A stretch of DNA of 64,000 bases, from the NCBI GenBank assembly GCA_039798445.1, contig JBDKFZ010000012.1, positions 2,407-66,406 on the forward strand. The letters are read 5' to 3'. The notes beneath the pieces were generated by a model. That model worked only from the letters and a program-made list of their open reading frames with translations, searched no databases and had not been told where the DNA came from. The DNA comes from Candidatus Parcubacteria bacterium. GTDB lineage: Bacteria > Patescibacteriota > Minisyncoccia > Phycocordibacterales > EsbW-18. Position 1 is the stretch's first letter; every line of letters begins with the position of its first letter. Positions 41,311 to 63,387 of this stretch are shown here, in pieces. The translations under genes and the position numbers were made by a program.

Positions 41311-41376
41311 ATCTTTGCGCTTTATTGTATCAGTTCTACAAAAAAGAGAACGTGAATAAAAACGAGATATGAAAAA

Positions 41377-41406: not shown

Positions 41407-41494
41407 TCCATCGTACAACCGATGGTGTGTTGGGCAGTAGTGCCCGAAACAAAGCGAGAACGTTCACGCGGGATGCAAGGGTCGGAGCCTCGTA

Positions 41495-46637: not shown

Positions 46638-49600
46638 CTAAAGACTATTTACGTATGCCCTCGTTACCGGCCCAAAGAATCCTACAGCAGGAGTGATACC
46701 GACAGGTGCTTGGTATTCAGCCAAAGCTGCTTGTGTAAGAGGTCCAAAGAAGCCTGTGGCTCCGTTTGAGGCGAGCGATTGTGCTGCGGGTCCCTTGTTC
46801 TGTGTCATGAGGAAGAGCTGGAGCTGGAGGACATCGTCCCCTTGTGCACCGAGATCGAGGTCACGGGTGTAGAGGTTGGATGTTGTCGTTGGAGTGCCGA
46901 GGAATGCGAGCATTGCTGGTGACGGGGTGCCGCCTTGTGCGATGAATTGGGTAATGAGGGTGCGGAGAAGGGTGAGAAGGTCGGAGCTTCCGCCTGTTGT
47001 TCCTGAACCACCGCCGCGACGATGAGATGAGCTTCCTCCCCCGTCTTCTTCCTCTTCATCATCGGCTGGCGGGGTTTCTTCTTCAACAACCTCTTCCCAA
47101 ACGAAGACGTCCGTCGAACTATTTGTATCACCCGTAACAAGGTTTGTTGCGTCAGAAACAAAACCTATGATTAAACCGTCATTTGAAATTGCTGGGCTGT
47201 CTGAATATCCACTCCCATCAGAGTTCGACGAGCCCTCAGTTATGTACAGCAATGTGTCTGTTGTACGGTCATATCGATAGACACCCGCATAGTCCCCCTC
47301 TCCATCATCCGTAGTTTGACCGAACGCAACATAGCGACCATCGGCAGAAATGACAGGTGCGTAAGAGGAGTCAGCGTCATCATTTGTAATACGTTCCATC
47401 ACTCCTGTCTCCCTATCAAGCACGAATACATCTTGAACGCCCTCTGTATCATCAGAAACTAGATTGTCTGCGTTGGATGAAAACGCAACATAGCGACCAT
47501 CGGCAGAAATTGCCACACCTCCTCCCGCGATATCACTATTTCCCTCCTCGTCCAAGTCATTTTTATCAACCATCTCCACAGTATCCGCATCTCTGTCATA
47601 CACATACAGGTGGTTATATCCTTCAATGGCTTCCGGCACAAGCAGACCACTCGTACTAAAGGTCACAAAGTTCCCGTTGCCTGATATTCGGACGGCACCT
47701 TGAACGTTTTCTGTGTTTTCTCCTCCTTCATCATCAAGACTCACCCGTTCAATAGTATCGGTGTCACGATCGTAGACAAAAGCATCACTTCTGCTATTTG
47801 TATCATCCGTAACAAGGTTTGTCGCATCGGAGTAAAAAGCGACATAACGACCATCGTTAGAAAGAATAGGATCATATGAAGCCCCATCCCCTTCCTGACC
47901 AAGGTCATTGAGACTTACGCGCTCAACCGTATCAGTGTCACGATCGTACACAAAAACATCGAAGGTATCATTGGTGTCATCGGGGATAAGGTTCGTCGTA
48001 GCTGAACGAAAAGCTACATACCTACCGTCAGATGAGATGCTCGGGGTCTGTGAATTACTGTCTCCTTCCTCACCAAGGTCGCTCACACTTACCCGTTCAA
48101 TGGTGTCTAAATCACGATCGTAGACAAAGACATCGTCCCATCCGTTTGTGTCATCCGAAACAAGATTGGTTGCTCCTGAACTAAAGACGACATACCTGCC
48201 ATCTGTCGAAAGGGAAACATTGAATCCTGTGGAATCGCCCTCTTCACCTTCGTTGTTTACGTTCACACGTTCAAAATCAAGTGCGGGTGGTGCTGGAACA
48301 TCTTGTACCGTAAAGTTCCATGTTGTTTCGTCCGCAATTCCAACATACGAGTTACCAGTACCATCCACAAAAGCTCCCTCGTCAATTAGCAGGTAATACG
48401 CCGTGGCATATTCAAGATCGACGTCTTGATATATGTAGACGTTTTCATCCTCGGCCTCAAGAGCATCGGCATCCGTCACGTCAAAAGTGGCGACAGTGCT
48501 GTCATCAGAAACTTTTTTAAGGGTTATGTTTCCTGTTCCAACAACGACATCTTGATCAAAAACAATCGTTGGGGTACCTCCCGAAAAAACAGTTATCGAA
48601 ACGTCTTCAGCATCATCTGCGGGTGAAAACGTTTCGACCACAGGAGGTGCATCTGTCGTAAAACTCCACTGTGTTTCATCCGAAATCCCAACAAACGGAG
48701 CGCCCCCATCATCTTCGATTGCTCCTGTATCAATGAGCACGTAATATTCTGTTGCCTCTTCGAGATCCGCATCTAAATCAATCTCCAACGTTGTAGTATC
48801 GGAGAGCGTAGCTTTTGGACCGGCAACATCTACTGTTTCGACCAGACTATCGTCGCTTGCTTTGTGAATTGTTATATTTCCCGTTGTTGTCGCAATGTCT
48901 TTATTAAAAACAAGAGTGAGGTTTGTGCCTACAACAACCTCTCTGGCGTTGTCTGAAGGTGTAAAACTGTCTAATACAATTGGCTCTGGTGTTACATACA
49001 ACCCACCCTCGACAGTAGCAACAATAAGATTCGAGCCGTCGGCGTCTGAAGCAACAGCCTGCCAAGCATAGCTATTGACACCTCCCGGCTGTTCTTCAAA
49101 CCACGTATCTCCACCGTCGTCAGAAGAATGTAGACTTCCTCCATTTACCCCCGCAAGCAAATTTGTACCAGTATCATCGGAAGCAACTGACCCCCAACCT
49201 TCAGTCGGAAAACCTGTGGGTTGACGCTCCATCCAGTTTGCACCACCATCACTTGATGTATATACAAGAGTGTTTCCTCCGGCAACGATGAGATTCGAAC
49301 CATCGGCGTCGGAGGCAACCTTGTCCCAGTTTTTTTCGGTGTCACCGGCAGGTCGACGCTCTACCCATGTATCTCCTCCATCGTCGGAGACATAAATAAA
49401 CCCATTAAACGTACCGATAATGAGCACAGAACCATCCGCATCTGAATCAACAGATATGATATTTATCTGTGTCGAAGTTGCAGTATGTTCTTCCCATGTA
49501 TCTCCGCCGTCGAAAGACGTATAGATAGTACTAGTTGCGCTTGTAACAGCGGCGAGATTCGAGCCATCGGCGTCTGAAGCAATACCCGTCCAATATTCAA

Positions 49601-49970
49601 CTGCACCACTGCTTGGATCAAGTGCGCTCCACGTCTCTCCACTATCCTCTGATCTATAGAGAAGGCCTGAGGCCCCGCCCCCTACAAGTAAGTTGGTTCC
49701 AGTAGAGTCTGATTTGACACTACGTGCTCCGTTCCCTGATGGACCCACAAGGTGTTCGGCCCATATTCCCCCAAAGTCGTGTGAAATGAAAATACTATTT
49801 GTTGAATTTCCTGCAATAAGATTTGAACCGTCGGCGTCTGAGGCAACAGCTCTCCATGCAGTTGAGGCATCTGTAGTAAACCATTCGTGAGATGCAGCAA
49901 ACACCGGCGTCACTTGGAGGAGAAGTGCGACGGTTGCGAGAGTTGCAGCGAATTTGCGGAGTAGTTTCAT
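46638..49970 (-). CDS. giant secreted surface protein P4 (about 1110 aa): signal peptide, BNR/Asp-box-like propeller, Big_5-like Ig domains, PD40-like repeats, shared C-terminal module, peptidoglycan-binding domain
   Basis: Likely start MKLLRKFAATLATVALLLQVTPVFA at 49970. Tail EEEEDGGGSSSHRRGGGSG...LLTLLRTLITQFIAQGGTPSPAMLAFLG...YTRDLDLGAQGDDVLQLQLFLMTQNKGPAAQSLASNGATGFFGPLTQAALAEYQAPVGITPAVGFFGPVTRAYVNSL. Confidence 0.85.
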   Translation of the reverse strand: MKLLRKFAATLATVALLLQVTPVFAASHEWFTTDASTAWRAVASDADGSNLIAGNSTNSIFISHDFGGIWAEHLVGPSGNGARSVKSDSTGTNLLVGGGASGLLYRSEDSGETWSALDPSSGAVEYWTGIASDADGSNLAAVTSATSTIYTSFDGGDTWEEHTATSTQINIISVDSDADGSVLIIGTFNGFIYVSDDGGDTWVERRPAGDTEKNWDKVASDADGSNLIVAGGNTLVYTSSDGGANWMERQPTGFPTEGWGSVASDDTGTNLLAGVNGGSLHSSDDGGDTWFEEQPGGVNSYAWQAVASDADGSNLIVATVEGGLYVTPEPIVLDSFTPSDNAREVVVGTNLTLVFNKDIATTTGNITIHKASDDSLVETVDVAGPKATLSDTTTLEIDLDADLEEATEYYVLIDTGAIEDDGGAPFVGISDETQWSFTTDAPPVVETFSPADDAEDVSITVFSGGTPTIVFDQDVVVGTGNITLKKVSDDSTVATFDVTDADALEAEDENVYIYQDVDLEYATAYYLLIDEGAFVDGTGNSYVGIADETTWNFTVQDVPAPPALDFERVNVNNEGEEGDSTGFNVSLSTDGRYVVFSSGATNLVSDDTNGWDDVFVYDRDLDTIERVSVSDLGEEGDSNSQTPSISSDGRYVAFRSATTNLIPDDTNDTFDVFVYDRDTDTVERVSLNDLGQEGDGASYDPILSNDGRYVAFYSDATNLVTDDTNSRSDAFVYDRDTDTIERVSLDDEGGENTENVQGAVRISGNGNFVTFSTSGLLVPEAIEGYNHLYVYDRDADTVEMVDKNDLDEEGNSDIAGGGVAISADGRYVAFSSNADNLVSDDTEGVQDVFVLDRETGVMERITNDDADSSYAPVISADGRYVAFGQTTDDGEGDYAGVYRYDRTTDTLLYITEGSSNSDGSGYSDSPAISNDGLIIGFVSDATNLVTGDTNSSTDVFVWEEVVEEETPPADDEEEEDGGGSSSHRRGGGSGTTGGSSDLLTLLRTLITQFIAQGGTPSPAMLAFLGTPTTTSNLYTRDLDLGAQGDDVLQLQLFLMTQNKGPAAQSLASNGATGFFGPLTQAALAEYQAPVGITPAVGFFGPVTRAYVNSL

Positions 49971-49998
49971 GTAATGGGAGCTAAAAACAATATCAAAA

Positions 49999-50010
49999 GT
50001 ATACCAAAAA
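49999..50010 (-). promoter_or_regulatory. extended -10 box TGGTATACT upstream of P4
   Basis: Minus strand reads gggtttttGGTATACTtttgatatt, about 30 nt upstream of ATG 49970. Confidence 0.4.
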
Positions 50011-50043
50011 CCCCTCAACTCTTTGGTTTTTGGGGATTACTCT

Positions 50044-53000
50044 CTAGAGTCCATTAATATGCGCCCTCGTCACTGGTCCAAAGTACCCTGCTGCTGGGGT
50101 GATGCCGACAGATAGCTGGTATTCAGCAAGAGCCGCTTGGGTGAGAGGTCCAAAAAGGCCTGTGGCTCCAACGACTGCAAGTGCTTGAGCCTGTGGTCCT
50201 TTGTTTTGAGCGATGAGGAAGAGTTGGAGTGCTGTTACGTCAGAGCCTTCGCTGTTGATGTCGAGATCGCGGGTGTATGTGCCTCCTGTAGTTGCTGGAG
50301 CACCAAGGAATGCGAGCATCGCTGGTGATGGGGTGCCACCTTGTGCGATGAATTGGGTGATGAGGGAGCGGAGGAGAGCAAGAAGATCTTGTGATGTGCC
50401 GCCTGAAGCAGGAGCAACTCCACGTCCTCGGTGAGAAGAGCTGCTGCCTCCCCCACTGTCGCCGTTGTCGTCATCATCGTCATCGTCACCAGAAGGAATC
50501 TCGTCTTCAATCAGTGTGTAGATAGCCAGTCCACCCGTGAAGGCTCCGCCGGCATAGAGTTCAGACTGGTCTGGCGAAAGAATGAGAGTGTTAACAGAAC
50601 TATCGATATCATCCACAGAAGGGCTGAAATCGCTTACCTCACCCGTCGCACTATTTACACTAGCGATTCTGAGTCGATCCAAACCATCGATTTGAGTGAA
50701 GTCACCACCAACGTAAAGAGTTGATCCATCGGAACTCAAATCGAGCCCTCGCACAGTGCTGTCGGGGTTAGGAGCAAAAGCGGTGGCAATACTATCGGCA
50801 ATGGTAAACTCTGCGAGATAATTACGTGTGGCATCTCCCCCGTTTACATCTCCAAAGTCTCCACCGGCAAAAACGGTTGATTCATCAAGAGAGAGCTTGA
50901 GAGCCCTCACTGTGCCATCAACATCCGGATTGAATGCTGTTACTGCACCATCTGCAGTTGTAAATGATGCAAGACGGCTGCGAGAGGCGGCACCGTTGTT
51001 GACTGTCGTGAACGCTCCTCCGGCATAGAGAACTGATTCGTCTGCAGAAAGCTCGAGAGAATTCACTGTCGAGCTCATATTCGGGTTGAATGCCGTCACA
51101 ACACCGTCCACCGTTGTGAATGCAGCGATACGCCTGCGCGATGTGCCTCCATTCACCGTCTGGAAGCTTCCTCCTGCATAGAGGATGCTGTCATCAGAAG
51201 AGAGCTTGAGGGCGTTCACCGTGCTGGCCATATTCGGATTAAACGCTGTTACAACTCCGTCCACGGTCGTAAACGCAGCAAGACGGTTTCGAGTTGTTCC
51301 AAGACACCCCCCTTCACCATCAAATATCCCATTTACACAGATAAACGTCCCGCCAACATAGAGCGTTAGTCCATCAGAAGAGAGTGCCAGCGCATTAACG
51401 GTATTGTTTATATCTGGATCAAAAGGCAAAAGAGTGTACGACGAGAGATCAATTGCGGCTACGTTATGACGAGTAGAAGCACCCGCCGCGGTGAAACTAC
51501 CACCGATATAAACGACACCATCCGCGACATCCGCCGCAGCCACACCTCCGTTCAGAGCAGGATCAAAATCTGTAACATTACTTGTAGCTAAATCAAACTC
51601 AGCAAATCCAGCTCGAGGTATATCACCATTCACCGTAGTCAGCTCTCCTACCGCATACAGCGTCAAACCATCCGAAGAAAAATCCATTCCACTTACTCTC
51701 CCTCCAGTAATATCAGGATCGAAATCAGTAGCGATACTAGTTGTTACATCAACAGCCGCAACTCCATTTCGGATTGTCCCCCCATTCACATCTCCAAACG
51801 TACCTCCAACATAAAGCGTCTCTCCATCAGGAGAAAGGAGAAGAGAGTACACACTGCCGTTAACGTTGGGGTCAAAATCAGTAGCGATACCCGTTGTAGC
51901 ATCAACAGCTGCGACACCGTTCCGCTCGACATATTCTGAAAGACTAAATGATCCACCGATATACAGTGCTGTACCATCTACGGCAATCTCAGAAATTCCT
52001 GAGTTTGAACCTGTAAAACCCGGGTCAAAATCAGTGACTAACGATGTTGTCGTATCAAACGCCGCGATACCAAGTCGCTCAACGTCATCATTTACCATGC
52101 TTATATTTCCTCCGACATACACCAGAGAACCGTCTTCCGAAAGGGCAATACTTGTTACAGAGTCGAACTCACTAATACCGGCGTCAAAACTCGTTACCGT
52201 TCCTGTCGTTGCATCGAATGCAGCAAGACGATTGCGTGTAGTTCCGCCATTCACTGTACTGAAATACCCTCCCGCATACACCACCGATCCATCTACGGCT
52301 ATTTCGTTAATCGTATCATTAACATTGGGGTTGAAAGCAGTTACCTCTCCTGTCGTTGCATCAAACGATGCAAATCTGTTGCGTGTTGTGTCTCCATTCA
52401 CTTCAGTAAAATCTCCGCTGATGTATACGACTGAACCTGCGAGCACCATACTACTACCAGCTTGGAATGAGTCTCCAAGATCTGGATCAAAAGAAGTCGC
52501 AACGCTGGTATCTGTGTCAAAAGCCGCTGCTCCATGTCGAGTCGTTGCTCCGTTTACCGTCTGGAAGTTTCCTGTCACGTACAAAGTTCCATCATCGGGA
52601 GAAAGTGCAATAGCATTAGCGCCCCCTTCTATGTTTGGATCAAAGTCTGTAGCAACACCTGTTTCTGTGTAGAAAGCGGCAACTTTATTTCGAGTGGTTG
52701 CGCCCCCGTTAACCGTAGAGAAGTATCCTCCCGCGTACAAAATCTCTCCATCCGAAGAAAGCGCCAATGAAATCACTGAGCTATCCAAATCTGGATCAAA
52801 GTTGGGGTCGACAGTGCCATCTGCGAGTATGTGGGCTAGACGATTACGCGCGGTGTTTTGAGCGGTCAAATTTGTAAAGTTTCCTCCGACATACCAACCG
52901 CCGTCTCCATCAGAAACAGCGACCGCCGGGTTGCCCCCATTGACTGTCGGCAACAAACTTTTTTGTTCGGCAGTCGTATCAAAAATGAATTCTTGAGCAT

Positions 53001-55470
53001 ACGTATAATTGTTTACTGAGGTCATGTTTGGTCCTCCCATGTACACCACACCATCGTCATACGCCAATGCCACACCGGCACTTGAATTAGGTGCTGGGTC
53101 AAAATCCAAGACCTCCGAGGTATCAGTATCAAATGCGGCAACGCGTCTACGTGGATACGCCCCGACATTACTGATGGAGCCAGAGATAAAGAGGATTGTA
53201 TCGTCTGGTGACAATACTAAGGCACGCACGGCACCGTCTGGGTCAGGTATGTCAAAATCTGTTGCCACGCCCGTCTCTGTGTCAAACGCGGCGACACCGC
53301 CACGCGAGACTTCTTCATTGTTTACATAACTAAAACCTCCACCTGCATAGAGAATAGAACCATCAGAAGAAAGAACGAGAGATTCAACGGTGGCATTTAC
53401 ATTCGGGTCAAAACCTTCATCAACAGTTCCCAGGCTCGTGATATGCGCAATATTATTGCGATCTGTTCCTCCAACAGATGTAAACGTTCCTCCGATATAC
53501 CAACCACCATCTCCATCAGAAACAACTACTGAAACTTGTCCTTCTACTTCGGGAAAAGTACTAACCGCTGCCTGTGTTGTTTCGTCAAATGGTATACCAC
53601 CACCCGTTGTGCCTCCACCCACAGCAAAGTCAAAGTTTCCACCAACGTAGAGTGTTGTGCCGTCAGTAACAACGGCGTTTATTGGTCCGTCAAATGAAAC
53701 TCGATTCTTAAGTTCATCAAGAACAGCATCTGGTGGTGGTGCAGCTTGGGTCGTAAAATTCCACGTTGTTTCATCTGCAATTCCTCCATACGCGTTTCCG
53801 TTTTCATCTTCGAGCGCTCCCGCATCGATGGTGAAGTAATACTCCGTTCCATATTCAAGGGCTCCCGTTTCCGGATATAGGTAGACAGTACTACCCCCAG
53901 CCTCTACAGCATCTCCGTCCGTAACATCAAAGGTTTCAACCGTACTATCATCAGAAACCTTTTTAAGAGTTATGTTTCCACTTCCTACAACCATGCTCTG
54001 ATTAAACTCGATAGTAACGTTCTCCTCTGCAAGAAATTCTATTGCAATATTTTCTGCATCATTTGCAGGTGAAAAACTGACAACAACAGGGGCTGTGTCG
54101 GTCGTAAAACTCCATGCCGTTGGATCAGAAATACCTGCAAATGCGTTACCGACAAGGTCTTCAATCGCACCTGCATCTATAAGAACGTAATACCCAGTCG
54201 CTACGTCTAATATCGTAGTGGGATCAATCGTGAGATCTGTACCAGAAACCGTTACCTTGGGACCAGCTACATCTATTGTTTCAATAAGCGAATCATCGCT
54301 TGTTTTATATAGCTCAATAGAACCCGTTGAAGTGGCAATGTCTTCGTTAAAAGTAATCGAGAAGGTTCCATCAACGGCAACTTCTGTTGCTTCGTCTGTG
54401 GGGTCAAACGATAGAACAAAAGGGCCCGTGTTGTCAGGAGCTAAAAAGAAAGCACCGTAACTAGCAAAAGCGATATGGGTTCCATCGGCGTCGGAAGCAG
54501 CGAAGCTTGCTGAGACTTGTCTGTTTCCTCCAGGATTCTCTTCTAACCACGTTTCACCGCTATCCTCGGAAGAAAAAAATCTTGGGGAACCACCATCGTT
54601 GCCGTATACAAACAAATTTGATCCACTTGCATCTGATGTGCCCGCTCCCCAATATACGCCAACATCCCCTGCTGGCTGACGTTCTGTCCAATCCACCCCT
54701 CCGTTTGAAGATGTATAAATACGTCCACTACCACCTGCACCCACAATAAGATTAGATCCATCGGCGTCTGAGGCAGCTATGTTCCATGCTTTACCAACAT
54801 CTCCCGCCGGCTGACGTTCTGTCCAATTGGCACCGCTGTCGCTTGATGTATATACACGACCAGAACCAATATAAGCATCAGCAAAAGTATCAACAACAAG
54901 AAGATTTGAACCATCTGCGTCCGAGGCAACAACATTCCAATCCCTATCAACATCCCCTGCTGGCTGACGTTCTGTCCAATCAACTCCTCCGTTTGAAGAT
55001 GTATAAAGACGTCTACCGCCCGCAGCTACAATAAGATTAGAGCCATCCGCATCTGAGGCAGCAGCGCGCCAGTAGTTGTCAATATCACCCGCTGGCTGAC
55101 GTTCTGTCCAATCAACTCCTCCGTTTGAAGATGTATAAAGACGACCAGAGTACACGCCCGCAACTAAATTGGAACCGTCGGCATCTGATGCTACCGGCCT
55201 CCATTGCTGGTCCTGAGCCCCACCCGGCTGACGTGCTGTCCAATTGGCACCGCTGTCGTCTGATACGTAGATATATCCCGAGCCATCAGCAAGAATGAGA
55301 TTCGATCCGTCGGCGTCTAATGCAACACCGTTAAAAGCGATCTGGTCGTTAGTAGCCGCGCCTGTCGGTCGAGGCTCACCCCACGTGTGTTCTGCAGCAA
55401 ACACTGGCGTCACCTGAAAGACCAGGCTGAGAATTGCGAAGGCGGCGACGCATTTGCGTAGGAGTTTCAT
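50044..55470 (-). CDS. giant secreted surface protein P5 (1808 aa): signal peptide, BNR-like propeller, Big_5-like Ig domains, about 25 delta-60-like repeats, shared C-terminal module, peptidoglycan-binding domain (mosaic of both subfamilies)
   Basis: MKLLRKCVAAFAILSLVFQVTPVFA signal. N-terminus like P4, central repeats like P2/P3. Tail DDDDDDDNGDSGGGSSSSHRGRG...LLALLRSLITQFIAQGGTPSPAMLAFLG...PGBD. Confidence 0.85.
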   Translation of the reverse strand: MKLLRKCVAAFAILSLVFQVTPVFAAEHTWGEPRPTGAATNDQIAFNGVALDADGSNLILADGSGYIYVSDDSGANWTARQPGGAQDQQWRPVASDADGSNLVAGVYSGRLYTSSNGGVDWTERQPAGDIDNYWRAAASDADGSNLIVAAGGRRLYTSSNGGVDWTERQPAGDVDRDWNVVASDADGSNLLVVDTFADAYIGSGRVYTSSDSGANWTERQPAGDVGKAWNIAASDADGSNLIVGAGGSGRIYTSSNGGVDWTERQPAGDVGVYWGAGTSDASGSNLFVYGNDGGSPRFFSSEDSGETWLEENPGGNRQVSASFAASDADGTHIAFASYGAFFLAPDNTGPFVLSFDPTDEATEVAVDGTFSITFNEDIATSTGSIELYKTSDDSLIETIDVAGPKVTVSGTDLTIDPTTILDVATGYYVLIDAGAIEDLVGNAFAGISDPTAWSFTTDTAPVVVSFSPANDAENIAIEFLAEENVTIEFNQSMVVGSGNITLKKVSDDSTVETFDVTDGDAVEAGGSTVYLYPETGALEYGTEYYFTIDAGALEDENGNAYGGIADETTWNFTTQAAPPPDAVLDELKNRVSFDGPINAVVTDGTTLYVGGNFDFAVGGGTTGGGIPFDETTQAAVSTFPEVEGQVSVVVSDGDGGWYIGGTFTSVGGTDRNNIAHITSLGTVDEGFDPNVNATVESLVLSSDGSILYAGGGFSYVNNEEVSRGGVAAFDTETGVATDFDIPDPDGAVRALVLSPDDTILFISGSISNVGAYPRRRVAAFDTDTSEVLDFDPAPNSSAGVALAYDDGVVYMGGPNMTSVNNYTYAQEFIFDTTAEQKSLLPTVNGGNPAVAVSDGDGGWYVGGNFTNLTAQNTARNRLAHILADGTVDPNFDPDLDSSVISLALSSDGEILYAGGYFSTVNGGATTRNKVAAFYTETGVATDFDPNIEGGANAIALSPDDGTLYVTGNFQTVNGATTRHGAAAFDTDTSVATSFDPDLGDSFQAGSSMVLAGSVVYISGDFTEVNGDTTRNRFASFDATTGEVTAFNPNVNDTINEIAVDGSVVYAGGYFSTVNGGTTRNRLAAFDATTGTVTSFDAGISEFDSVTSIALSEDGSLVYVGGNISMVNDDVERLGIAAFDTTTSLVTDFDPGFTGSNSGISEIAVDGTALYIGGSFSLSEYVERNGVAAVDATTGIATDFDPNVNGSVYSLLLSPDGETLYVGGTFGDVNGGTIRNGVAAVDVTTSIATDFDPDITGGRVSGMDFSSDGLTLYAVGELTTVNGDIPRAGFAEFDLATSNVTDFDPALNGGVAAADVADGVVYIGGSFTAAGASTRHNVAAIDLSSYTLLPFDPDINNTVNALALSSDGLTLYVGGTFICVNGIFDGEGGCLGTTRNRLAAFTTVDGVVTAFNPNMASTVNALKLSSDDSILYAGGSFQTVNGGTSRRRIAAFTTVDGVVTAFNPNMSSTVNSLELSADESVLYAGGAFTTVNNGAASRSRLASFTTADGAVTAFNPDVDGTVRALKLSLDESTVFAGGDFGDVNGGDATRNYLAEFTIADSIATAFAPNPDSTVRGLDLSSDGSTLYVGGDFTQIDGLDRLRIASVNSATGEVSDFSPSVDDIDSSVNTLILSPDQSELYAGGAFTGGLAIYTLIEDEIPSGDDDDDDDNGDSGGGSSSSHRGRGVAPASGGTSQDLLALLRSLITQFIAQGGTPSPAMLAFLGAPATTGGTYTRDLDINSEGSDVTALQLFLIAQNKGPQAQALAVVGATGLFGPLTQAALAEYQLSVGITPAAGYFGPVTRAHINGL

Positions 55471-55501
55471 AAAATAAATGGAGGTTAATTACAATATCAA
55501 A

Positions 55502-55515
55502 AGTATACCAAAAAA
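55502..55515 (-). promoter_or_regulatory. extended -10 box TGGTATACT upstream of P5
   Basis: Minus strand reads gggttttttGGTATACTtttgatattg, about 32 nt upstream of ATG 55470. Confidence 0.4.
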
Positions 55516-55547
55516 CCCTCGACTGTCTGAGTTTTTTGGGGATTCTG

Positions 55548-57587
55548 TTAGAGAGTATTGAAATGCCCTCGTGTTACTGGTCCAAAATAGCCTGTTGCTG
55601 GGAAAATACCCACAGATGCTTGGAATTCAGCAAGAGCTGCTTGTGTAAGAGATCCAAAGAAGCCTGTTGCTCCGTTTGCTGCCAGTGCTTGAGCCTGCGG
55701 GCCCTTCTTTTGCTGTATAAGAGCTGCTTGAAGAGCGGTAACGTCTGAACCTGAAGAACCAATATCAAGATCACGGGTATATGTACCTGTTGTTGGTGTA
55801 GTCGTAGGAAGTGTCGATACATCGAGTGCAAGAACAGTGAGCATACCCTGCGAAGGCACCCCGCCGAGGAGGATGTACTGCGAAATAAGATCTTTGAGCT
55901 TGATGATAATCGTTTGATATGTGCTTCCTCCAATGTGAGGCGGCGCTGTCTGACCGTCTTCAGACGAGGTATCGCTTTTTCTACTGCTACTTCCTCCACC
56001 ACCACCGCCACCTCCCCCACCACTATCTTCTTCCTCTTCTTCCTCACAGGCTGAAGTCGTCACTGTTCGGTGGGAACCATATGAAAGCCCTCCTAGCACA
56101 TTCGATGCCCACGCCTTGAAGTGGTACGTCGTCTCACACTCAAGAGAAGAGAGCGTCGTAGAAAAGGTTCCCGTCGAAAAAGTGCCTTCTTCGGTCGTCG
56201 TCGCCCCATACGAGACCGACAGACCATAGGCAAATCCACGGAGGTTCGGATCTTGGCCACCCGTCGTAGCGATATTGCCGTTGAGCGTCACTTCGGTCTG
56301 TCCGATCCCCGATGCGGGGACCGTTATCACACCGGGAGCATCGGCTTCGGGCACATCTTCGAGTTCGACGGTAATGGTTCCCGTACCCGCAGTAGAAAGC
56401 CACCAATCATCCATCACCTCAATCACAAGCTCGAATGATGGGTTCGTTTCAAAATCGATGGCTTCTTCAGTGTTGACGCTAATGGCCCCCGTGTCCGCAT
56501 CGATTGCGAATGCACTATCTGTGTTACCCGAGAGAATGGAGTACGTTAGGGTGTTCCCGCCCAATGCGTCAGTTGCTGTTGTTGTCCCCACAAATGTTCC
56601 ATTGGCACTGTTCTCCATGAGGGAGAACGTCTCATCGGTAACTTCTGGTGTCTCGTTGAACACATCAAAACAGGAAAGATCATACGTAGACATCTGATAC
56701 CCGCCATCATTACCAAGCGTGGCAATTGAGCTGTTGATCGCATCTATATACGCTCCGTAGAAAGGACCGTAGCCAACTCCTGTTACCGTGAGCGCGAGAA
56801 TCGGCTGATTATTGATGAAGAAAAAACCCGGCTGTCCGGAATCCCCGTTGACTTGCGCTTCATAGAAATCAAAGCGGGTCGACGGTGCGTCGGGAGTAAA
56901 GTGATTAAAGTACACATGCTCATTAGCTAAACCTATTGCATAATTAATTTCCTGAATGCTTGCTTTTGCCTCCTGATCAAACAAGAGGAATGGGAACTGT
57001 GGTTCTGAAAGATAACGATCCAACTCCAATTTCGAAATCGCAGGATAAAAAGCTATCGAAGGTGGGACGTCAGAATCAAGCACACCGAGCTGTACATCTT
57101 CTCCTGCATCGGGCTGAAACACCACTGACATCTGCGCTTGAAGCGTACGCGTTGCAACAGAGTTATCATCCGCAACAAAAACAACGGTTGATCCGTTAGT
57201 TATTGGAAAATGTTTTGCAAAAACAATGTGACGAGGAGAAATAAGAACCCCAGCACGTCTAAAGTCCAAGTTGGAGTTCCATGGAGACGCACCTGACAAA
57301 TCCAGTGGAGCATCTCCCTCCGTTATCCATGCCGTTGAGCTTCGTGTCCACGGGTCTGTCGCATTTCCTCTGGTTGAGAAGATTTTCTTGGTGCTGTCGT
57401 TGGCTGTCAGACCATCAATACGATAATCGACCTCATGGTTCAGTTCTGCGACAAGATCCGTCGAAAAAAGATCTTCACAACTTGAAGGCACAAATACCTC
57501 AGCAAAAATGACATGTGGAACAAGGAAACCACTCAGCGCGATCGTGCCCACAAGGAGTCTTTGTGCCTTTAAAAAGAAGGTGGGCAT
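55548..57587 (-). CDS. secreted surface protein P6 (679 aa): signal peptide, trypsin-like serine-peptidase domain, cadherin-like/Ig-like region, poly-Gly linker, peptidoglycan-binding domain
   Basis: His in VLISPRHIVFAKHF, Asp in DVQLGVLDSDV, Ser in VNGDSGQPGF (a GDSGxP motif). Tail EEEEEDSGGGGGGGGGGSSSRKSD...IIIKLKDLISQYILLGGVPSQGMLTVLA...YTRDLDIGSSGSDVTALQAALIQQKKGPQAQALAANGATGFFGSLTQAALAEFQASVGIFPATGYFGPVTRGHFNTL. Confidence 0.7.
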   Translation of the reverse strand: MPTFFLKAQRLLVGTIALSGFLVPHVIFAEVFVPSSCEDLFSTDLVAELNHEVDYRIDGLTANDSTKKIFSTRGNATDPWTRSSTAWITEGDAPLDLSGASPWNSNLDFRRAGVLISPRHIVFAKHFPITNGSTVVFVADDNSVATRTLQAQMSVVFQPDAGEDVQLGVLDSDVPPSIAFYPAISKLELDRYLSEPQFPFLLFDQEAKASIQEINYAIGLANEHVYFNHFTPDAPSTRFDFYEAQVNGDSGQPGFFFINNQPILALTVTGVGYGPFYGAYIDAINSSIATLGNDGGYQMSTYDLSCFDVFNETPEVTDETFSLMENSANGTFVGTTTATDALGGNTLTYSILSGNTDSAFAIDADTGAISVNTEEAIDFETNPSFELVIEVMDDWWLSTAGTGTITVELEDVPEADAPGVITVPASGIGQTEVTLNGNIATTGGQDPNLRGFAYGLSVSYGATTTEEGTFSTGTFSTTLSSLECETTYHFKAWASNVLGGLSYGSHRTVTTSACEEEEEEDSGGGGGGGGGGSSSRKSDTSSEDGQTAPPHIGGSTYQTIIIKLKDLISQYILLGGVPSQGMLTVLALDVSTLPTTTPTTGTYTRDLDIGSSGSDVTALQAALIQQKKGPQAQALAANGATGFFGSLTQAALAEFQASVGIFPATGYFGPVTRGHFNTL

Positions 57588-57602
57588 GACTTCAGAGCCC
57601 TC

Positions 57603-57614
57603 AGTATAGCAAAA
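57603..57614 (-). promoter_or_regulatory. extended -10-like box TGCTATACT upstream of P6
   Basis: Minus strand reads ggttttGCTATACTgagggc, 18 nt upstream of ATG 57587, directly after the P7 terminator hairpin. Confidence 0.35.
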
Positions 57615-57634
57615 CCACGGATTTCCGTGGTTTT
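57611..57634 (-). terminator. rho-independent terminator after P7
   Basis: aaaaccacgg-atttc-cgtggtttt. Confidence 0.65.
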
Positions 57635-57658
57635 GTGAGGATTGGTCGAAGCCAACGT

Positions 57659-60310
57659 CTACAACCCGTTCACGTACGCTCTCGTTACCGGCCCAAAGAA
57701 TCCTACGGCAGGTGTGATGCCGACAGATGCTTGGTATTCAACCAAAGCTGCTTGTGTCAGTGGTCCAAAAAAGCCCGTGGCACCGTTTGCTGCGAGTGAT
57801 TGTGCTGCAGGGCCTTTGTTTTGTGCGATGAGGAAGAGTTGGAGTTGGAGGACGTCGTCACCTTGTGAGCCAATGTCGAGATCACGGGTGTAAAGGTTAG
57901 ATGTTGTTGGAGTGCCGAGGAATGCGAGCATCGCTGGTGACGGGGTGCCGCCTTGTGCGATGAACTCTACAATTAAACTCCTCAATGTTTCAAAGAGATC
58001 GGTGTCCTCGCGGAATGACGGCGGGTTACTGATGGGTTTTCGATGGGTGCTACCTCCCCCACCACCGCCGCCGCTGTTATCGTCATCTGGCTCTTCCTCA
58101 TCTTCAACACCTTCGTCCCACACAAACACATCACGATCATCATTTGTATCGCTTTCAACAAGATCAGTTGCGTCTGAAGCAAAGGCGACAACATGACCGT
58201 CTCCTGAAACAGAACCTCCATTTCCACCGACGAGTGAATTCTCTGTTATGTGAAGAAGTGTATCTGATTCTCTATCGTAACGGAAAATGTTGTTCGTCTG
58301 TCCCTCTCCACCATCTGTAGATCTTGTAAAAACAACATACCGCCCATCTGAAGAAATGCTCGGTTTACCGGTGCTCTCCTCATCATCGTCAATCAATCGA
58401 TCAATAGTGTCGGTGTCGCGATCATAGACAAAAACTCCCCATTTGGTACTGGTGTCTCCTGAAACAAGATTTGTGGCATCAGAGGCAAAAGCTATATAAC
58501 GCCCATCAGATGAGAGAGCAATTTCCTGTCTCGCGTCGTTGTTTCCTTCCACCCCTTCGTCTGACACGCTCACACGTTCGATGGTTTCTCCCACACGATC
58601 GTACACAAACACATCATTCCTACCGTTCGTGTCGTCCACAACAAGGTCCGTAGAAGCTGAGACAAGAACGACATGTGTGCCATCTTTCGAGATTACCCCG
58701 AGGCGAGATTGCCCATCAGATCCCGACGTGATGTTGGTTTCTGTGTCGAGCTCTCGATCGTGGAGAATGATGTCATATCTCCCATCGCTATCTAGGCGTT
58801 GCGTATAGACCACATAGCGTCCATCATCAGAAATAGATGGCGACTCAAAGGAGTCTCCAGACACCCCATCTGTATTTACCTGTTCAATACTACCGAGCGT
58901 CCTGTCATAGAGAAAAATGTCGACTGAACCAGATATGTTGTCCGTTAAGTTCTCCGCAGCTGACGAAAAAACAACATACCTACCGTCTGAAGAAATATAC
59001 GGACTGATCGAGTGTCCATCCCCTTCTTCTCCTGCTATATTCGCACTCGCGAGTTCGATGGTATCCGTATCGCGATCGTAGACGAAGATATCCCGGCTGT
59101 CATTGGTATCTTCCAAAACAAGATTCGTAGCGTCTGACTCAAAGACGATATACCTACCATCTTCAGAAAGCTGTGGGGGTAGGTTCGCCGAGTCACCGTC
59201 CGCCTCCTCCCCCTCATCGTTTACACTCACGCGCTCAAATTCAAACGTTGGGGGTGGTAGCGTTGTAAAATTCCATGTCGTTTCGTCAGCGATACCCGTA
59301 AATCCAACGATTGCTGTGCTATCGATGGTAAAATAATAATCCGTACTCCTCTCCAAATCGACTGCTGGATGCAATGTCAACGTAGCGTTAGAAATAGTGA
59401 CCTCCTCTTCGACGCTCACATCAAACGTATCTACAACGCTGTCATCACTCGCTTTGTAGAGAGTTATATTCCCTGTTCCACCATAAATATTCTTATCAAA
59501 TTCTATTGTATAACTATCTAAAACAATCGAGACACCTGTTTCACCATCGGCAGGATTAAGCGTCACAATCGCTGGGGCGGCCTCCGTGGTGAAATTCCAT
59601 GTTGTTTCGTCAGTGATGCCGGCGAAAGGAACTATCGCACCCACATCAATGAGAATGTAGTATTCCGTTGCTGGTTCAAAGAGATCTAGGCGTGAAAAAT
59701 ACACTCCTTGATTTTCTACTGTCACCTCTTCGTCATTAGTTATGTCCCACGTTTCAACAATACTGTCATCGCTCGCTTTATAAAGCGTTATATTGCCCGT
59801 GTCCGTGTAAACCAGCCCATCAAAATAAATAGAAACGGGATCCTCCGGATTCAAGGAAGCATCTATCGCATCGTCCCCTGGTGAAAGTGAGTCGATTCCG
59901 CGTGGTGTATCATATGCATCTGTTGTAAAGCTCCAAGTCGTTTCGTCAGAAATACCTGCAAAGTCAACTATTGCCCCTGCGTCGATTTGAAAATAATATT
60001 CTGTACTCGTTGCAAGATCAGTATCGATGAGTACATAGACAACCACTCCAGAAAAATTTGCCTCCTCAGGGTCAGTGACATCGAGCGTCTCGACTACGCT
60101 ATCATCGCTCGCTTTGTAGAGCGTTATGTTTCCTGTTCCCGCAACTATTGCTTCATCAAAAATAAGATAATATGCCTGTTGGTCATTGAATATTGTCGTA
60201 TTAACTGCATCATCTTCAGGAGACAGGTTTGTTACTACGGCCGCCTGCGCAAAAAGGGGCAGGCAAGCCGAAATAAGAAAAAGAAACGACGCTAGGAGGA
60301 ATCTCCTCAT
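57659..60310 (-). CDS. giant secreted surface protein P7 (883 aa): signal peptide, about 4 Big_5-like Ig domains, about 7 PD40-like repeats, shared C-terminal module, peptidoglycan-binding domain
   Basis: MRRFLLASFLFLISACLPLFAQA signal, Ig units ending ETTWSFTT / ETTWNFTT. Tail GGGGGGGSTHRKPISNPPSFREDTDLFETLRSLIVEFIAQGGTPSPAMLAFLG...YTRDLDIGSQGDDVLQLQLFLIAQNKGPAAQSLAANGATGFFGPLTQAALVEYQASVGITPAVGFFGPVTRAYVNGL. Confidence 0.85.
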   Translation of the reverse strand: MRRFLLASFLFLISACLPLFAQAAVVTNLSPEDDAVNTTIFNDQQAYYLIFDEAIVAGTGNITLYKASDDSVVETLDVTDPEEANFSGVVVYVLIDTDLATSTEYYFQIDAGAIVDFAGISDETTWSFTTDAYDTPRGIDSLSPGDDAIDASLNPEDPVSIYFDGLVYTDTGNITLYKASDDSIVETWDITNDEEVTVENQGVYFSRLDLFEPATEYYILIDVGAIVPFAGITDETTWNFTTEAAPAIVTLNPADGETGVSIVLDSYTIEFDKNIYGGTGNITLYKASDDSVVDTFDVSVEEEVTISNATLTLHPAVDLERSTDYYFTIDSTAIVGFTGIADETTWNFTTLPPPTFEFERVSVNDEGEEADGDSANLPPQLSEDGRYIVFESDATNLVLEDTNDSRDIFVYDRDTDTIELASANIAGEEGDGHSISPYISSDGRYVVFSSAAENLTDNISGSVDIFLYDRTLGSIEQVNTDGVSGDSFESPSISDDGRYVVYTQRLDSDGRYDIILHDRELDTETNITSGSDGQSRLGVISKDGTHVVLVSASTDLVVDDTNGRNDVFVYDRVGETIERVSVSDEGVEGNNDARQEIALSSDGRYIAFASDATNLVSGDTSTKWGVFVYDRDTDTIDRLIDDDEESTGKPSISSDGRYVVFTRSTDGGEGQTNNIFRYDRESDTLLHITENSLVGGNGGSVSGDGHVVAFASDATDLVESDTNDDRDVFVWDEGVEDEEEPDDDNSGGGGGGGSTHRKPISNPPSFREDTDLFETLRSLIVEFIAQGGTPSPAMLAFLGTPTTSNLYTRDLDIGSQGDDVLQLQLFLIAQNKGPAAQSLAANGATGFFGPLTQAALVEYQASVGITPAVGFFGPVTRAYVNGL

Positions 60311-60389: not shown

Positions 60390-60698
60390 TTGAGGGGCAT
60401 ATACTTGGTTCATATGGATCAGAAGAAAGCTCTAACAATGGATGTGCTCAAAGCCCTGGTTGTAGTTATATCCGGAGCCGCACTCGTCTCGCACTACAGC
60501 GCTTCAAATCCTTCGAGCGCGTTATCAAACGAGCCGCGCCCCGAAATCGTTCGTCAGGGCGAACAACTCGGTACGCCCCGATCTTTTGTCTGTGCGAAAG
60601 ATTCTTTGGCTCAGGACGAGAATGATGTTTTGGCGATGGAATACAGCAATACAAAAACAGTGGACTGCATGTTCGTAGGCTGTGGAGGTATCTTCTAG
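60390..60698 (+). CDS. hypothetical small secreted Cys-containing protein (low confidence)
   Basis: 102-aa ORF with a signal-like segment MDVLKALVVVISGAALVSHYSA. Converges on and overlaps the next gene by 4 nt. No domain. Confidence 0.3.
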   Translation: MRGIYLVHMDQKKALTMDVLKALVVVISGAALVSHYSASNPSSALSNEPRPEIVRQGEQLGTPRSFVCAKDSLAQDENDVLAMEYSNTKTVDCMFVGCGGIF

Positions 60699-62089
60699 TT
60701 AACAATAGACTCTAAGAACTCTTTTTGATTTATAAAAGAGTCTTTTATCTCTTTTTCTGAGTACCCCGCCTTCTGCAATTCACTCAATCGTAGAAACGGG
60801 AATCGTACCTGCATCGCCATCAGTTCTTTCTCCGTCATCATGTAGGTGAGTGTGTCGTCTATCCTCCAAACAGACTGCGCATACGGCATGTAGAGCAACG
60901 AATACGCAGACCTCGTTGTGTGTAAGAATCCCGGAGAGATGACGAAATTGCTCTCTACTCGTTGAGACATCTCTAAGATGTCAGTGAACAGAGCCACGGA
61001 ATTGAGCGCCGGAGCGATTACACCAAACTGATTTTCCATGAGGCTTTCATATTCTGCGGATGTCGTAGCGATGTCGTGTGTATCGAGAAAATCAAGGGTC
61101 ATTATCCTGGGATAAAACGTCAGGTTGGTGCATTCATACGTAACGGCCTCTGGCTGACTATAAAAAGGAAGTCCCCTTTCCCTCAATCGCACACTGATGA
61201 GATCCCTGTCTGTTGGTGACAAAATACGAAAATAGCTTTCATCAACCAACTTCGGGATGAATACTCTTTTATCATCAATGGAGCCGTAAACGGCATAGAG
61301 CGAATGTGGCGAACCTCTCCAACAGGAAGAGGGAGCGAGATACGGCCCACTCACCTCTTGTTCTATTCGTATAAAAGGTAGATTCTCTCGAATCGTTTTA
61401 CTATTCGTATCTGTATCGTCTACTTTCTGGACTTCGCGCGATAGATCATCGCGATTTCGAACAATCTCTCGAATATCACAACCTCTATTCTCCAGGAGAC
61501 ACTTTTTACGTCGTGCTATCTCCTCTTTGAGTGTGAGGCCGTTCTTATATATCTTCTCGAAATCTTTTTGGACGATCTCCTCGGATGTCCCGCTCTCGAT
61601 GAAGAAATAATAGCGAGGATCCGCTGTTGGGGCTTGCGCTTCTATCTTTGCAAATGCATCCAAGGTCGAAGAAGCTGATTCGATGTAGGCATCTGCGGCT
61701 TCTTCATATGTATCCAAGAGCCCTTTTGCCTTGTTTGAGTCCGGGTCATGAAAAAAATCTTCCGTCAGCACAGCTATCTCCGGAAGTGCGCTCAAGAATC
61801 TGCTTGGAAAAAGTTCGTACTCTCTGAGAATTCCCACGTACTCAGAGAACCTTTTGTCTTTTCTGTTCTCTATAGTCCCAATGACGGTGTCGCGTAGTCT
61901 CTTTTCTGAAAAAGCTATCTCGTCTACAGCACCTCCGAAATCATCGTCCATGAAGGGCGAATACAGGAGCGGGTCTTCTTTGGTTATTTTCTCAAAAGCT
62001 TCCAGCCCTGGAGCGGTTTTGTGAGCAGATGAGAACCAGACTACGCCACCGACGATTACAAGAAATGCGACGATGATGGTATTTCTCAT
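60695..62089 (-). CDS. hypothetical protein with N-terminal TM anchor (464 aa)
   Basis: MRNTIIVAFLVIVGGVVWFSS anchor, then a large soluble domain with no recognisable motif. ATGA overlap with the upstream ligase gene. Confidence 0.6.
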   Translation of the reverse strand: MRNTIIVAFLVIVGGVVWFSSAHKTAPGLEAFEKITKEDPLLYSPFMDDDFGGAVDEIAFSEKRLRDTVIGTIENRKDKRFSEYVGILREYELFPSRFLSALPEIAVLTEDFFHDPDSNKAKGLLDTYEEAADAYIESASSTLDAFAKIEAQAPTADPRYYFFIESGTSEEIVQKDFEKIYKNGLTLKEEIARRKKCLLENRGCDIREIVRNRDDLSREVQKVDDTDTNSKTIRENLPFIRIEQEVSGPYLAPSSCWRGSPHSLYAVYGSIDDKRVFIPKLVDESYFRILSPTDRDLISVRLRERGLPFYSQPEAVTYECTNLTFYPRIMTLDFLDTHDIATTSAEYESLMENQFGVIAPALNSVALFTDILEMSQRVESNFVISPGFLHTTRSAYSLLYMPYAQSVWRIDDTLTYMMTEKELMAMQVRFPFLRLSELQKAGYSEKEIKDSFINQKEFLESIVN

Positions 62090-63387
62090 ATCTCTGCGAG
62101 CATTATCTTGGCGACCGCTTTTCCCGAAACCGAAGAAAGCTCCGCAAAACGTACTTCGAGCGGATTAAAGAGCCCTGTCAGAACAGCTTCTTTGAGATTC
62201 ATAGATGGGGACACTCTAAAGTACTCCATGAATTCGGACCGTATCTTTTCTTTGAGGCTCTCAGTTGCTTGGACATTCTGATTTACCATGACCGTAAGCT
62301 CCATAGAGATTTTCGGTTTGTTGTCGAGATATTCTTCTTTCATCCTGACCTCGAAATGCGGCGTAAGGAACTCCTTGAGCCTCAGTAAAGGGGTTTCTAT
62401 CATGTCTCTCCTGATCTCAAAGCCGCCAGCTTTGACGAAATCATTGAACATCCTTCCCTTTACCAAAAGCAGTGGCTCTTTGTTGTCACACTCACACTGT
62501 TTATCCACAAAACATGCGCGGTCTCCCGTTCTATATCGAATCAGGGGTGTGGCGAGATTTGTAAAATCCGTGACCACCAATTCGCCATCCTGACCGTCTG
62601 GCACGTGCTTCCCTGTCTCTGGATCCAATATCTCAAGAAAGAAATGCTCGTTCATCGGATGAAGAAGAATCTCATCATGCGCACGGGCCAACATAGGACA
62701 TTGAATAGCGCACTTCCCTATCTCACCTGAACCGTAGAGCGTAAAGACTTCTTGGTCCGGATAGAGCGACTGTATGTATTCTTTCTTCGAAGGTGTGACG
62801 AGCTCTCCGGTTAATCTGATGTATTTCAACGTAGCGAGAAGCGAAGGATCATTCTCCAGATATTTTTTAAGCACAATCATCATCGTGGGGGTGCTGAGAA
62901 TCGTCCGTATCTTCGCTCGCGCGGCCAGCGAGATGGTGGCGGGTAGATTATGTATGTCACCGATCATCGACATGCGGTTTATCAAAAAGGTGTAGTACAT
63001 GATTGAGCTCGCTCGTAGCGGGCCAAAGAGGATGAGCATCCTTCCAAAATCTCCCGTCTCTAAATCTTTCCTTACCGCTTTCGAGGATGGTGTGTTGTAT
63101 GTCACCATCGGCTTGTTCGAGGTGGTGCCCGAAGTCGCCGACATCGTGACAACATCTTCTTCTGGCACAAAAAGGAGATTCTCATGCCCAAAATCTAAAA
63201 GCTCCTCTTTTGTTGTTAGGGGAATCTTTTCGATATCCTCGAACGAATTAAAGCCGGCGCTGGGGTCGAACCCTGCCGCGGTGAACTTGTCGAGATAAAA
63301 ACTGCTGTGTTTATTCTCAAAAACAAACTTCAACAACTCCTTCCAATCCCCTATACCCAGTGTCTTTTTCATACTGTATAAAAACAC
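62086..63387 (-). CDS. adenylate-forming enzyme of the phenylacetate-CoA ligase / coenzyme F390 synthetase (PaaK/CapK-like) family
   Basis: SATSGTTSNKP (AMP-binding P-loop-like motif) and RYRTGD near the C-terminal domain; 433 aa. Confidence 0.7.
   Translation of the reverse strand: MFLYSMKKTLGIGDWKELLKFVFENKHSSFYLDKFTAAGFDPSAGFNSFEDIEKIPLTTKEELLDFGHENLLFVPEEDVVTMSATSGTTSNKPMVTYNTPSSKAVRKDLETGDFGRMLILFGPLRASSIMYYTFLINRMSMIGDIHNLPATISLAARAKIRTILSTPTMMIVLKKYLENDPSLLATLKYIRLTGELVTPSKKEYIQSLYPDQEVFTLYGSGEIGKCAIQCPMLARAHDEILLHPMNEHFFLEILDPETGKHVPDGQDGELVVTDFTNLATPLIRYRTGDRACFVDKQCECDNKEPLLLVKGRMFNDFVKAGGFEIRRDMIETPLLRLKEFLTPHFEVRMKEEYLDNKPKISMELTVMVNQNVQATESLKEKIRSEFMEYFRVSPSMNLKEAVLTGLFNPLEVRFAELSSVSGKAVAKIMLAEI

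Follow-up and report, generated by a model that had tools for sequence, protein, structure and literature searches.

Large secreted proteins with peptidoglycan (PG)-binding domains have already been proposed in the literature as attachment factors of Paceibacteria. Host-attached members of this class highly express extracellular PG-binding-domain proteins, which were proposed to mediate attachment (PMC10936435), and adhesins are essential for the epibiotic growth of Saccharibacteria (PMC10633639). Here we describe a locus in a 64-kb stretch of DNA (hereafter the window) from a metagenome-assembled genome (MAG) of Candidatus Parcubacteria, a Paceibacteria-class member of the candidate phyla radiation (CPR). 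The window encodes seven paralogous proteins, P1 to P7, in two tandem arrays, array 1 (P1-P3) and array 2 (P4-P7). We consider it fairly probable (about 60%) that they constitute a fast-evolving family of secreted, acidic surface proteins held non-covalently at the cell wall, probably adhesins together with one protease.

The closest described counterparts are the proteins of Ca. Paceibacteria of the Yanofskyibacteriaceae and Minisyncoccaceae, which live on methanogens (Kuroda et al. 2024, PMC10936435). They stem from the same class and, like P4-P7, combine signal peptides and Ig-like folds with a PG-binding domain, and the role proposed for them lies at the host interface, as here; the likeness is one of description only. 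Tandem arrays, propellers, Big_5 domains, a trypsin-fold domain and turnover between strains, however, were not described for these proteins. Vampirococcus lugosii and Southlakia epibionticum likewise have reduced CPR genomes with type IV pili, and host attachment was proposed or shown to depend on their large proteins, secreted or of the envelope, which carry WD40/propeller, PKD, fibronectin or lectin domains. Unlike P4-P7, these proteins belong to Absconditabacteria and Saccharibacteria, have other domain sets and are mostly membrane-anchored, and a shared PG_binding_1 tail has not been reported for them. In Clostridioides difficile, the Cwp family forms a chromosomal cluster of paralogs that join a common non-covalent wall-binding module to a variable functional region; one member (Cwp84) is a protease, and strains exchange the locus through recombination. 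By analogy, the organisation of P1-P7 resembles that of the Cwp family with its shared wall-binding module, variable heads, single protease and recombining cassettes, but the Cwp anchor consists of three CWB2 repeats instead of PG_binding_1, Cwp84 is a cysteine protease and the phylum differs. Since the general idea has been published, the value of the present locus is incremental rather than conceptual, and the details that may be worth following are its cassette-like junctions, its turnover between near-identical genomes and its phage-related protease family.

An initial interpretation made from the DNA alone (the sequence-only reading) had described array 2 as four consecutive minus-strand genes for signal-peptide proteins. 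This description holds, and only the start of P4 had to be corrected. Positions 46638-60310 of the minus strand carry four uninterrupted open reading frames (ORFs) of 1126 (from TTG), 1808, 679 and 883 aa (Table 1). The longest P4 ORF (46638-50018) opens at TTG, and an internal ATG at 49970 gives a protein of 1110 aa beginning with MKLLRK. This ATG is almost certainly the true start, because the TGGTATACT box preceding P4 lies downstream of the TTG and the paralog P5 also opens with MKLLRK. In a Candidatus Parcubacteria MAG, proteins identical to P4-P7 are annotated as 'hypothetical proteins' (RLY47_356 to RLY47_359; P4 is 100% identical to NCBI RLY47_356), which supports a Parcubacteria (CPR) origin. 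The word 'giant' was generous for proteins that measure 679-1808 aa. Their mosaic, paralogous architecture is supported by Pfam matches and repeat periods, and the repeat motifs that had been quoted are visible in the translations at the expected periods. Together, the seven paralogs fill 23.5 of the 64 kb (37%), in line with the earlier estimate of over a third of the window.

The tail is common to all seven proteins: it has an acidic run, a stretch of Gly and Ser that includes a conserved S-H-R-[RK] motif, and an amphipathic helix. In P3-P7 this helix leads to a terminal domain of 77 aa with 66-78% identity between the proteins, so that the four PG-binding domains of array 2 stand or fall together. 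Bit scores from single-sequence hidden Markov model searches were compared with the gathering cut-offs of the Pfam families. For PG_binding_1 (PF01471, cut-off 23) the score of P6 was above the cut-off (28.0), those of P5 (21.0) and P7 (18.6) were below it, and P4 was unlisted at E ≤ 0.01. A profile built from 19 sequences of the C-terminal module matched 5nm7 (2.2e-7), 1lbu (9.4e-7) and SleB 6tci (1.3e-6), and also endolysins and L,D-transpeptidases; a shallow profile made from only the five window sequences was borderline against the PDB (1lbu at E 0.021). In the AlphaFold2 (AF2) model of the module, the predicted local distance difference test score (pLDDT) was at least 90 over residues 61-137. 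All top Foldseek matches of this model were PG-binding domains (5tv7, SleB 6tci, CtpB and SleC; probability 0.98-1.0), with weak E-values, the domain being small, and comparison with the N-domain of SleB 6tci gave a template modelling (TM) score of 0.82 and a root-mean-square deviation of 1.9 Å. By profile and predicted fold, then, the C-terminal domain of P3-P7 is a PG_binding_1 domain, and the earlier claim that all of P4-P7 end in one stands on the agreement between the 19-sequence profile and the fold comparison. The module is widespread (12,370 cluster representatives at E ≤ 1e-3; 3,618 at E ≤ 1e-10) and is found mostly at the C-terminus of very different proteins of 160-3800 aa.

Each of P1-P7 begins with a basic-hydrophobic, Sec-type N-terminus that ends in a small-residue motif, and the pI of all seven lies between 4.05 and 4.17. 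Neither another hydrophobic or transmembrane segment (internal or C-terminal) nor an LPxTG-like motif was found in P1-P7, and membrane anchoring and sortase anchoring were accordingly rejected for all seven proteins. S-layer anchoring through SLH or CWB2 was rejected as well, as Pfam and NCBIfam searches returned no matches to these families. With these signal peptides, the lack of any other hydrophobic segment or LPxTG motif and the acidic pI, the proteins look like soluble proteins that would be exported by Sec and held non-covalently at the wall. The signal peptide of P7 also contains a lipobox-like LISAC, and P7 could be a lipoprotein as well as wall-bound.

A common wall-binding module and strong acidity would also suit structural components of the envelope. 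The paralogs could be alternative or mixed lattice subunits of a regular outer layer of the CPR cell, anchored by PG_binding_1, instead of adhesins. Each gene has its own strong-looking promoter, the conserved helix before the anchor could mediate oligomerisation, and a shared anchor combined with swappable cassettes is typical of S-layer loci, for example Cwp/SlpA of Clostridioides difficile. Such an S-layer role nevertheless appears unlikely to us, given that no SLH, CWB2 or other S-layer family was matched in Pfam and NCBIfam, that the seven architectures are very different and include a protease, that beta-propeller and Ig arrays are more typical of binding proteins, and that there is no sign of one dominant subunit.

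The N-terminal part of P6 sets this protein apart. An AF2 model of its first ~280 residues, built from a 29-sequence alignment, showed the chymotrypsin double beta-barrel fold with high confidence (pLDDT 90.8, predicted TM score 0.88). Foldseek found 532 matches in the PDB at E ≤ 1e-3, led by plasminogen, factor D and trypsin (E ~1e-8, with 2e-8 as the value recorded; probability 1.0). His, Asp and Ser occur in the order H97 (..AKH), D135 and S221 (GDSG; domain numbering, the serine being S250 of full-length P6) and are invariant in the alignment of 29 homologs, as are the motifs ..AKH.., D(V/I)xxGVL and GDSG. No Pfam match to this domain was found even at E ≤ 10, and none in NCBIfam or PHROG; its homolog P0044 scored 15.9 against a Pfam trypsin-type cut-off of 20.6. 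A fold match without any match to a curated family makes the P6 domain a fold-level relative of trypsin from an uncurated family. The trypsin-like domain that had been assigned to P6 only is thereby confirmed at the level of the fold (AF2 and Foldseek) and not as a member of Pfam Trypsin; as modelled, it is a divergent serine-protease-fold domain. Behind it lies a cadherin domain that the first description lacked, the profile of which matches solved cadherins down to E 1e-22, and then a beta-rich segment for which no Pfam family match was found. It is speculation that P6 cleaves the linker at the S-H-R-[RK] motif: opposite trypsin position 189 the alignment has Ala or Ser, and a basic specificity cannot be claimed.

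Relatives of the P6 domain are mostly proteins of ~405 aa, and the contexts examined are phage-like. In two of the three metagenomic contigs examined, the homolog gene directly follows an Mtd_N tail-fibre-like gene; a further homolog lies in a 362-kb contig, possibly from a jumbo phage, where the Mtd_N neighbour is absent. The homolog UOF78081.1 is located in the structural module of podovirus MW202510.1, and the top viral fold match of the P6 domain is an uncultured Caudovirales phage protein (E 4e-18). These phage tail-module proteins (UOF78081.1; BFVD A0A6J7XEP5) are homologous to the P6 N-terminal domain and carry the SPWNS, LISPRH, LDSDV and GDSG motifs. Unlike P6, they are located after Mtd_N tail-fibre-like genes and have no signal peptide, cadherin domain or PG-binding tail. 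The phage-like contexts suggest that the predicted P6 protease-fold domain may act on a foreign cell surface. Matches to the same family are also annotated in the genomes of the molluscs Babylonia areolata and Saccostrea echinata (P0097, P0119), with a weak Kazal-like N-terminus in P0097; these could reflect horizontal transfer or contamination.

The association of the P6 protease family with phage tails would also suit proteins whose PG_binding_1 tail is directed at the wall of a bacterial host. They would be released or delivered on contact, and P6 would digest the host peptidoglycan or wall proteins so that the cell can feed or enter. PG_binding_1 is a domain typically met in endolysins, spore cortex lytic enzymes and L,D-transpeptidases, and a host-attachment role was proposed for the PG-binding-domain proteins of Paceibacteria (Kuroda et al., PMC10936435). 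Against this, a catalytic-looking domain is present in P6 only, a muralytic domain was found in none of the seven proteins, and a C-terminal module placed after a long linker resembles wall-retention modules. Moreover, the Paceibacteria for which such proteins were reported parasitise methanogenic archaea. These archaea are not known to have bacterial-type (murein) peptidoglycan, which favours self-anchoring, and we regard the targeting of a host wall as improbable.

The bodies of P4-P7 are predicted to be made up of BNR/sortilin-like, PD40/TolB-like and DUF5122/Rax2-like beta-propellers and of Big_5 Ig domains, not all of them present in each protein. Big_5 scored far above its cut-off of 23.6 bits in P4 (74.3), P5 (105.2) and P7 (88.3), and PD40 scored 56.8 and 63.2 bits (cut-off 20.9) in P4 and P7, each with seven blades at ~55-aa spacing. 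These PD40 propellers are not TolB itself, as TIGR02800 gave scores of 19-45 against a cut-off of 343. S-x-D-x-G-x-x-W boxes recur ~44 aa apart, five times in P4 and six times in P5; the Asp-box propeller of P4 exceeded the cut-offs of Sortilin-Vps10 (47.7 vs 33) and PSII_BNR (31.6 vs 27), and the BNR match of P5 (28.8) remained under its cut-off. At least 17 blades with ~51-aa spacing were counted in P5, matching Rax2 (110.8 vs 28.8) and DUF5122 (32.2 vs 27), and a 1703-aa homolog (P0123) has the same architecture. The repeat kinds named by the sequence-only reading were thus all recovered: the Big_5-like domains and PD40/TolB-like repeats by score, the BNR/Asp-box-like blades by box spacing together with the P4 matches, and the delta-60-like ~50-aa blades as DUF5122/Rax2-type repeats, the NCBIfam search of P5 having reported no delta-60 model.

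Nutrient-scavenging exoenzymes held at the wall, with BNR as a sialidase or glycosidase and PD40 as the N-domain of a peptidase S9, are a decidedly doubtful explanation of these propellers. Their case is a weak similarity to the F510_1955 glycosylhydrolase family, DPPIV_N and Dpp5, but the scores lie far under the cut-offs (49-55 vs 175 for glycosylhydrolase NF045728 (F510_1955), 36 vs 900, and 21.4 vs 31.4 for BNR_2), no peptidase S9 catalytic domain was found after the PD40 propellers, and the closest BNR matches are the non-catalytic propellers of sortilin and Ycf48. Both the sialidase/BNR glycoside hydrolase and the peptidase S9 assignments were rejected.

Array 1 belongs to the same family, and its three genes each have their own hairpin and TGnTATACT box. 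Within it, only P3 has kept PG_binding_1; P1 and P2 retain the tail as far as the helix, with the acidic linker and S-H-R-[RK], and end there. Downstream of P1 and P2 there is no room for a frameshifted remnant of a PG-binding domain. In a close relative, the P1-like protein retains the domain.

To see how the family varies between relatives, we used GCA_030917725.1, the closest genome in a species-representative collection. Its EF-G is 100% identical to that of the window at the amino acid level, and the flanks of array 1 are 96-99% identical in nucleotide sequence. P3 and P6 are 90% and 79% identical, and the counterparts of P1, P4, P5 and P7 are 40-50% identical. In array 1 of this relative, a single 1480-aa protein, 43% identical to P1, replaces P2 and P1, and an extra 3.8-kb family gene lies between EF-G and P3. 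The extra gene is flanked on both sides by the same 28-nt promoter-cassette sequence (~1895-1922 and 5721-5748 of the relative's locus L005; 17998-18025 in the window), which fits gain or loss by recombination between repeated cassettes. Array 2 of the relative lacks P7 together with its two upstream neighbours, a P3-like protein of 1318 aa occupies the P5 position, and the protein at the P4 position is only 49% identical. The best full-length match of P4 outside its own assembly, among 5.8 billion proteins searched, is likewise 49% identical. A Campbellbacteria relative has the P6 ortholog alone, among housekeeping genes. Conservation of the array as a unit is not seen in these relatives, and the family appears to turn over quickly in a setting that is otherwise conserved.

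An assembly or annotation artefact, or decaying pseudogenes, can be set aside as very unlikely. The sequence comes from a MAG, genes rich in repeats are easily misassembled and a relative's contig (L006) breaks inside a C-terminal module, but the frames are uninterrupted over 2-5.4 kb, the DNA repeats between paralogs are only 60-85% identical, which speaks against repeat collapse, and independent assemblies carry full-length orthologs (P6 79%, P3 90%) or proteins of the same architecture (P0133, P0272, P0123).

The sequence-only reading had treated each gene as its own transcription unit. The motif TGnTATACT occurs nine times in the window against 0.77 copies expected, and seven of the nine copies precede the seven family genes, at a distance of 6-40 nt. 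For six of these genes a hairpin with a U-tract stands immediately before the box, which is also seen upstream of family members in relatives. Strong hairpins (z -3.9 to -6.1) were found between P7 and P6, after P4 and at all three junctions of array 1. Folding found no hairpin upstream of P7, the transcript of which may be leaderless, because its box ends 6 nt before the ATG. A terminator scan flagged only the hairpin after P4, the other intergenic signals having been read directly and folded, and a generic sigma-70 scan gave 12 sites against 18.7 in shuffles, fewer than expected by chance. The promoter-like boxes favour one unit per gene, and the hairpins do so at P7/P6, where they are strong, and less at P6/P5 and P5/P4, where they are weak; separate transcription of P4-P7 is plausible on these signals.

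A mechanism consistent with these observations would run as follows. Each gene would be transcribed from its own extended -10-type box, which for six of the seven directly follows the terminator-like hairpin ending the upstream gene, and each protein would be exported by Sec. The C-terminal PG_binding_1 domain, where present, would hold the protein non-covalently on the producer's own peptidoglycan, and the acidic Gly/Ser linker (S-H-R-[RK]) and amphipathic helix would be the spacer that spans the wall. The propellers and Ig-like domains of the N-terminal part would then point away from the cell and offer binding surfaces to a partner cell or substrate, and P6 would display its serine-protease-fold domain, which probably acts on a foreign cell surface or on other family members. 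Turnover would probably result from the conserved 3' modules and intergenic cassettes recombining with one another, a pattern to be expected of proteins that diversifying selection shapes where the cell meets a host, phages or the environment.

Several points weigh against this proposal. P1 and P2 have no PG-binding domain, so anchoring is not universal in the family: the anchor shared by P4-P7 does not extend to all of array 1. Two of the three intergenic hairpins within array 2 are weak. The flanks of array 2 are only ~82% identical in nucleotide sequence to GCA_030917725.1, which suggests a mixed or mosaic relationship with that genome, and since it too is a MAG, errors of binning or assembly could account for some of the rearrangements. 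The functional steps are all inferred from domains, the wall bound by PG_binding_1 could be that of another cell instead of the producer's, and a binding role of the propellers is putative, as is the dedicated attachment system of the sequence-only reading.

More tentatively, both arrays may be surface-variation loci in which a repeated cassette of ~0.3-0.4 kb (PG-binding module, hairpin and TGnTATACT) is the recombination substrate for the insertion, deletion or swapping of genes between near-identical flanks. In P6, an episymbiont would have domesticated a relative of a phage tail-module protease for use against the surface of its partner, and P1 and P2 might ride on anchored paralogs via the shared helix. 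We put this forward as a possibility of rather low probability.

The genes around the arrays fit a reduced CPR genome and include rpsL-rpsG-fusA, 23S and 5S rRNA, tRNA-Ile, PGK, TIM, RecJ and ComEC. Type IV pilus genes (PilB, PilC and a pilin-like gene) span 34.3-41.4 kb of the window; the cluster said to lie next to the array is indeed nearby but not adjacent, the gap being ~5 kb. The core genome of Parcubacteria includes genes for peptidoglycan synthesis and for type IV pili (PMC4508563). Between the pilus cluster and array 2 lies a plus-strand gene for an extracytoplasmic function (ECF)-type sigma factor (43150-43692), whose 3' end is overlapped by a plus-strand 256-aa ORF (to 44344) without a family match, possibly an anti-sigma factor. 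Upstream of P7, two minus-strand genes (60695-63387) encode a 464-aa protein without a family match and a 433-aa AMP-binding-like protein, and the 384-nt gap between P7 and the 464-aa gene holds a plus-strand ORF (60390-60698) of 102 aa with a hydrophobic N-terminal segment. The minus-strand 23S rRNA gene (2112-5475) measures 3364 nt against a model of 2925 positions; the insertion of ~440 nt is possibly an intron, as is common in CPR. It is followed downstream by 5S rRNA (1552-1659) and tRNA-Ile (1724-1797). A GC-rich 112-nt repeat with long inverted ends is present in two copies (1356-1467 and 27678-27789; 96% identical), each directly upstream of the start of a minus-strand gene (ORF 556-1350 and ComEC 26202-27689), and no Rfam match to it was found. 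No diversity-generating retroelement was seen in the window, its sole reverse transcriptase-like match (RVT_3/RNase H, 28089-28661) being an RNase H-type protein.

Table 1 Coordinates of the predicted features. Positions refer to the window except where another locus is named; z is the folding z-score.
Feature	Position	Strand	Remarks
P4	46638-49970	-	1110 aa: signal peptide, BNR/sortilin-like propeller, 2 Big_5, 7-blade PD40 propeller, acidic linker, helix, PG_binding_1
P5	50044-55470	-	1808 aa: signal peptide, BNR propeller, 2 Big_5, ~20 DUF5122/Rax2-type 51-aa blades, acidic linker, helix, PG_binding_1
P6	55548-57587	-	679 aa: signal peptide, trypsin-fold, cadherin, beta-rich segment, Gly/acidic linker, helix, PG_binding_1
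P7	57659-60310	-	883 aa: signal peptide (possible lipobox LISAC), 3 Big_5, 7-blade PD40 propeller, acidic linker, helix, PG_binding_1
PG_binding_1 domain of P4	46641-46871	-	77 aa; profile and fold
PG_binding_1 domain of P5	50047-50277	-	profile and fold; Pfam 21.0 bits vs 23, below cut-off
PG_binding_1 domain of P6	55551-55781	-	Pfam 28 bits vs 23; PHROG endolysin wall-binding region 7.6e-9
PG_binding_1 domain of P7	57662-57892	-	profile; Pfam 18.6 bits vs 23, below cut-off
Trypsin-fold (PA-clan-like) domain of P6	56658-57500	-	residues ~30-310; AF2, Foldseek
Cadherin domain of P6	56361-56630	-	residues 320-409; Pfam 51.2 bits vs 28.8
Extended -10-like box TGGTATACT upstream of P4	49998-50006	-	
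Box TGGTATACT upstream of P5	55502-55510	-	
Box TGCTATACT upstream of P6	57603-57611	-	
Box TGATATACT upstream of P7	60317-60325	-	6 nt before ATG
Terminator-like hairpin P7/P6	57611-57634	-	AAAACCACGG-AAAU-CCGUGGUUUU; abuts promoter box; -21.7 kcal/mol, z -4.7
Weak A/U-rich hairpin P6/P5	55508-55539	-	-12.1 kcal/mol, z -2.2
Weak A/U-rich hairpin P5/P4	50004-50033	-	-13.9 kcal/mol, z -2.2
Intrinsic-terminator-like hairpin after P4	46587-46609	-	z -4.0
Array 1 (same family)	8193-17979	-	P1 8193-11267; P2 11373-14096; P3 14185-17979
PilB	39556-41418		
PilC	38202-39464		
Pilin-like gene	35706-36314		
SleB-like wall hydrolase gene	24696-25412		
P6-domain homolog loci	L032 8001-9230; L033 8001-9212; L035 5437-6672		

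What is understood of how ultrasmall CPR/Patescibacteria recognise and hold their partners comes largely from a few cultured Saccharibacteria. The locus described here offers testable candidates in the far larger, uncultured Parcubacteria, namely a wall-anchoring module, display domains, an uncurated protease family and two variable loci, and its turnover would serve as a marker of host-range or phage-driven selection.

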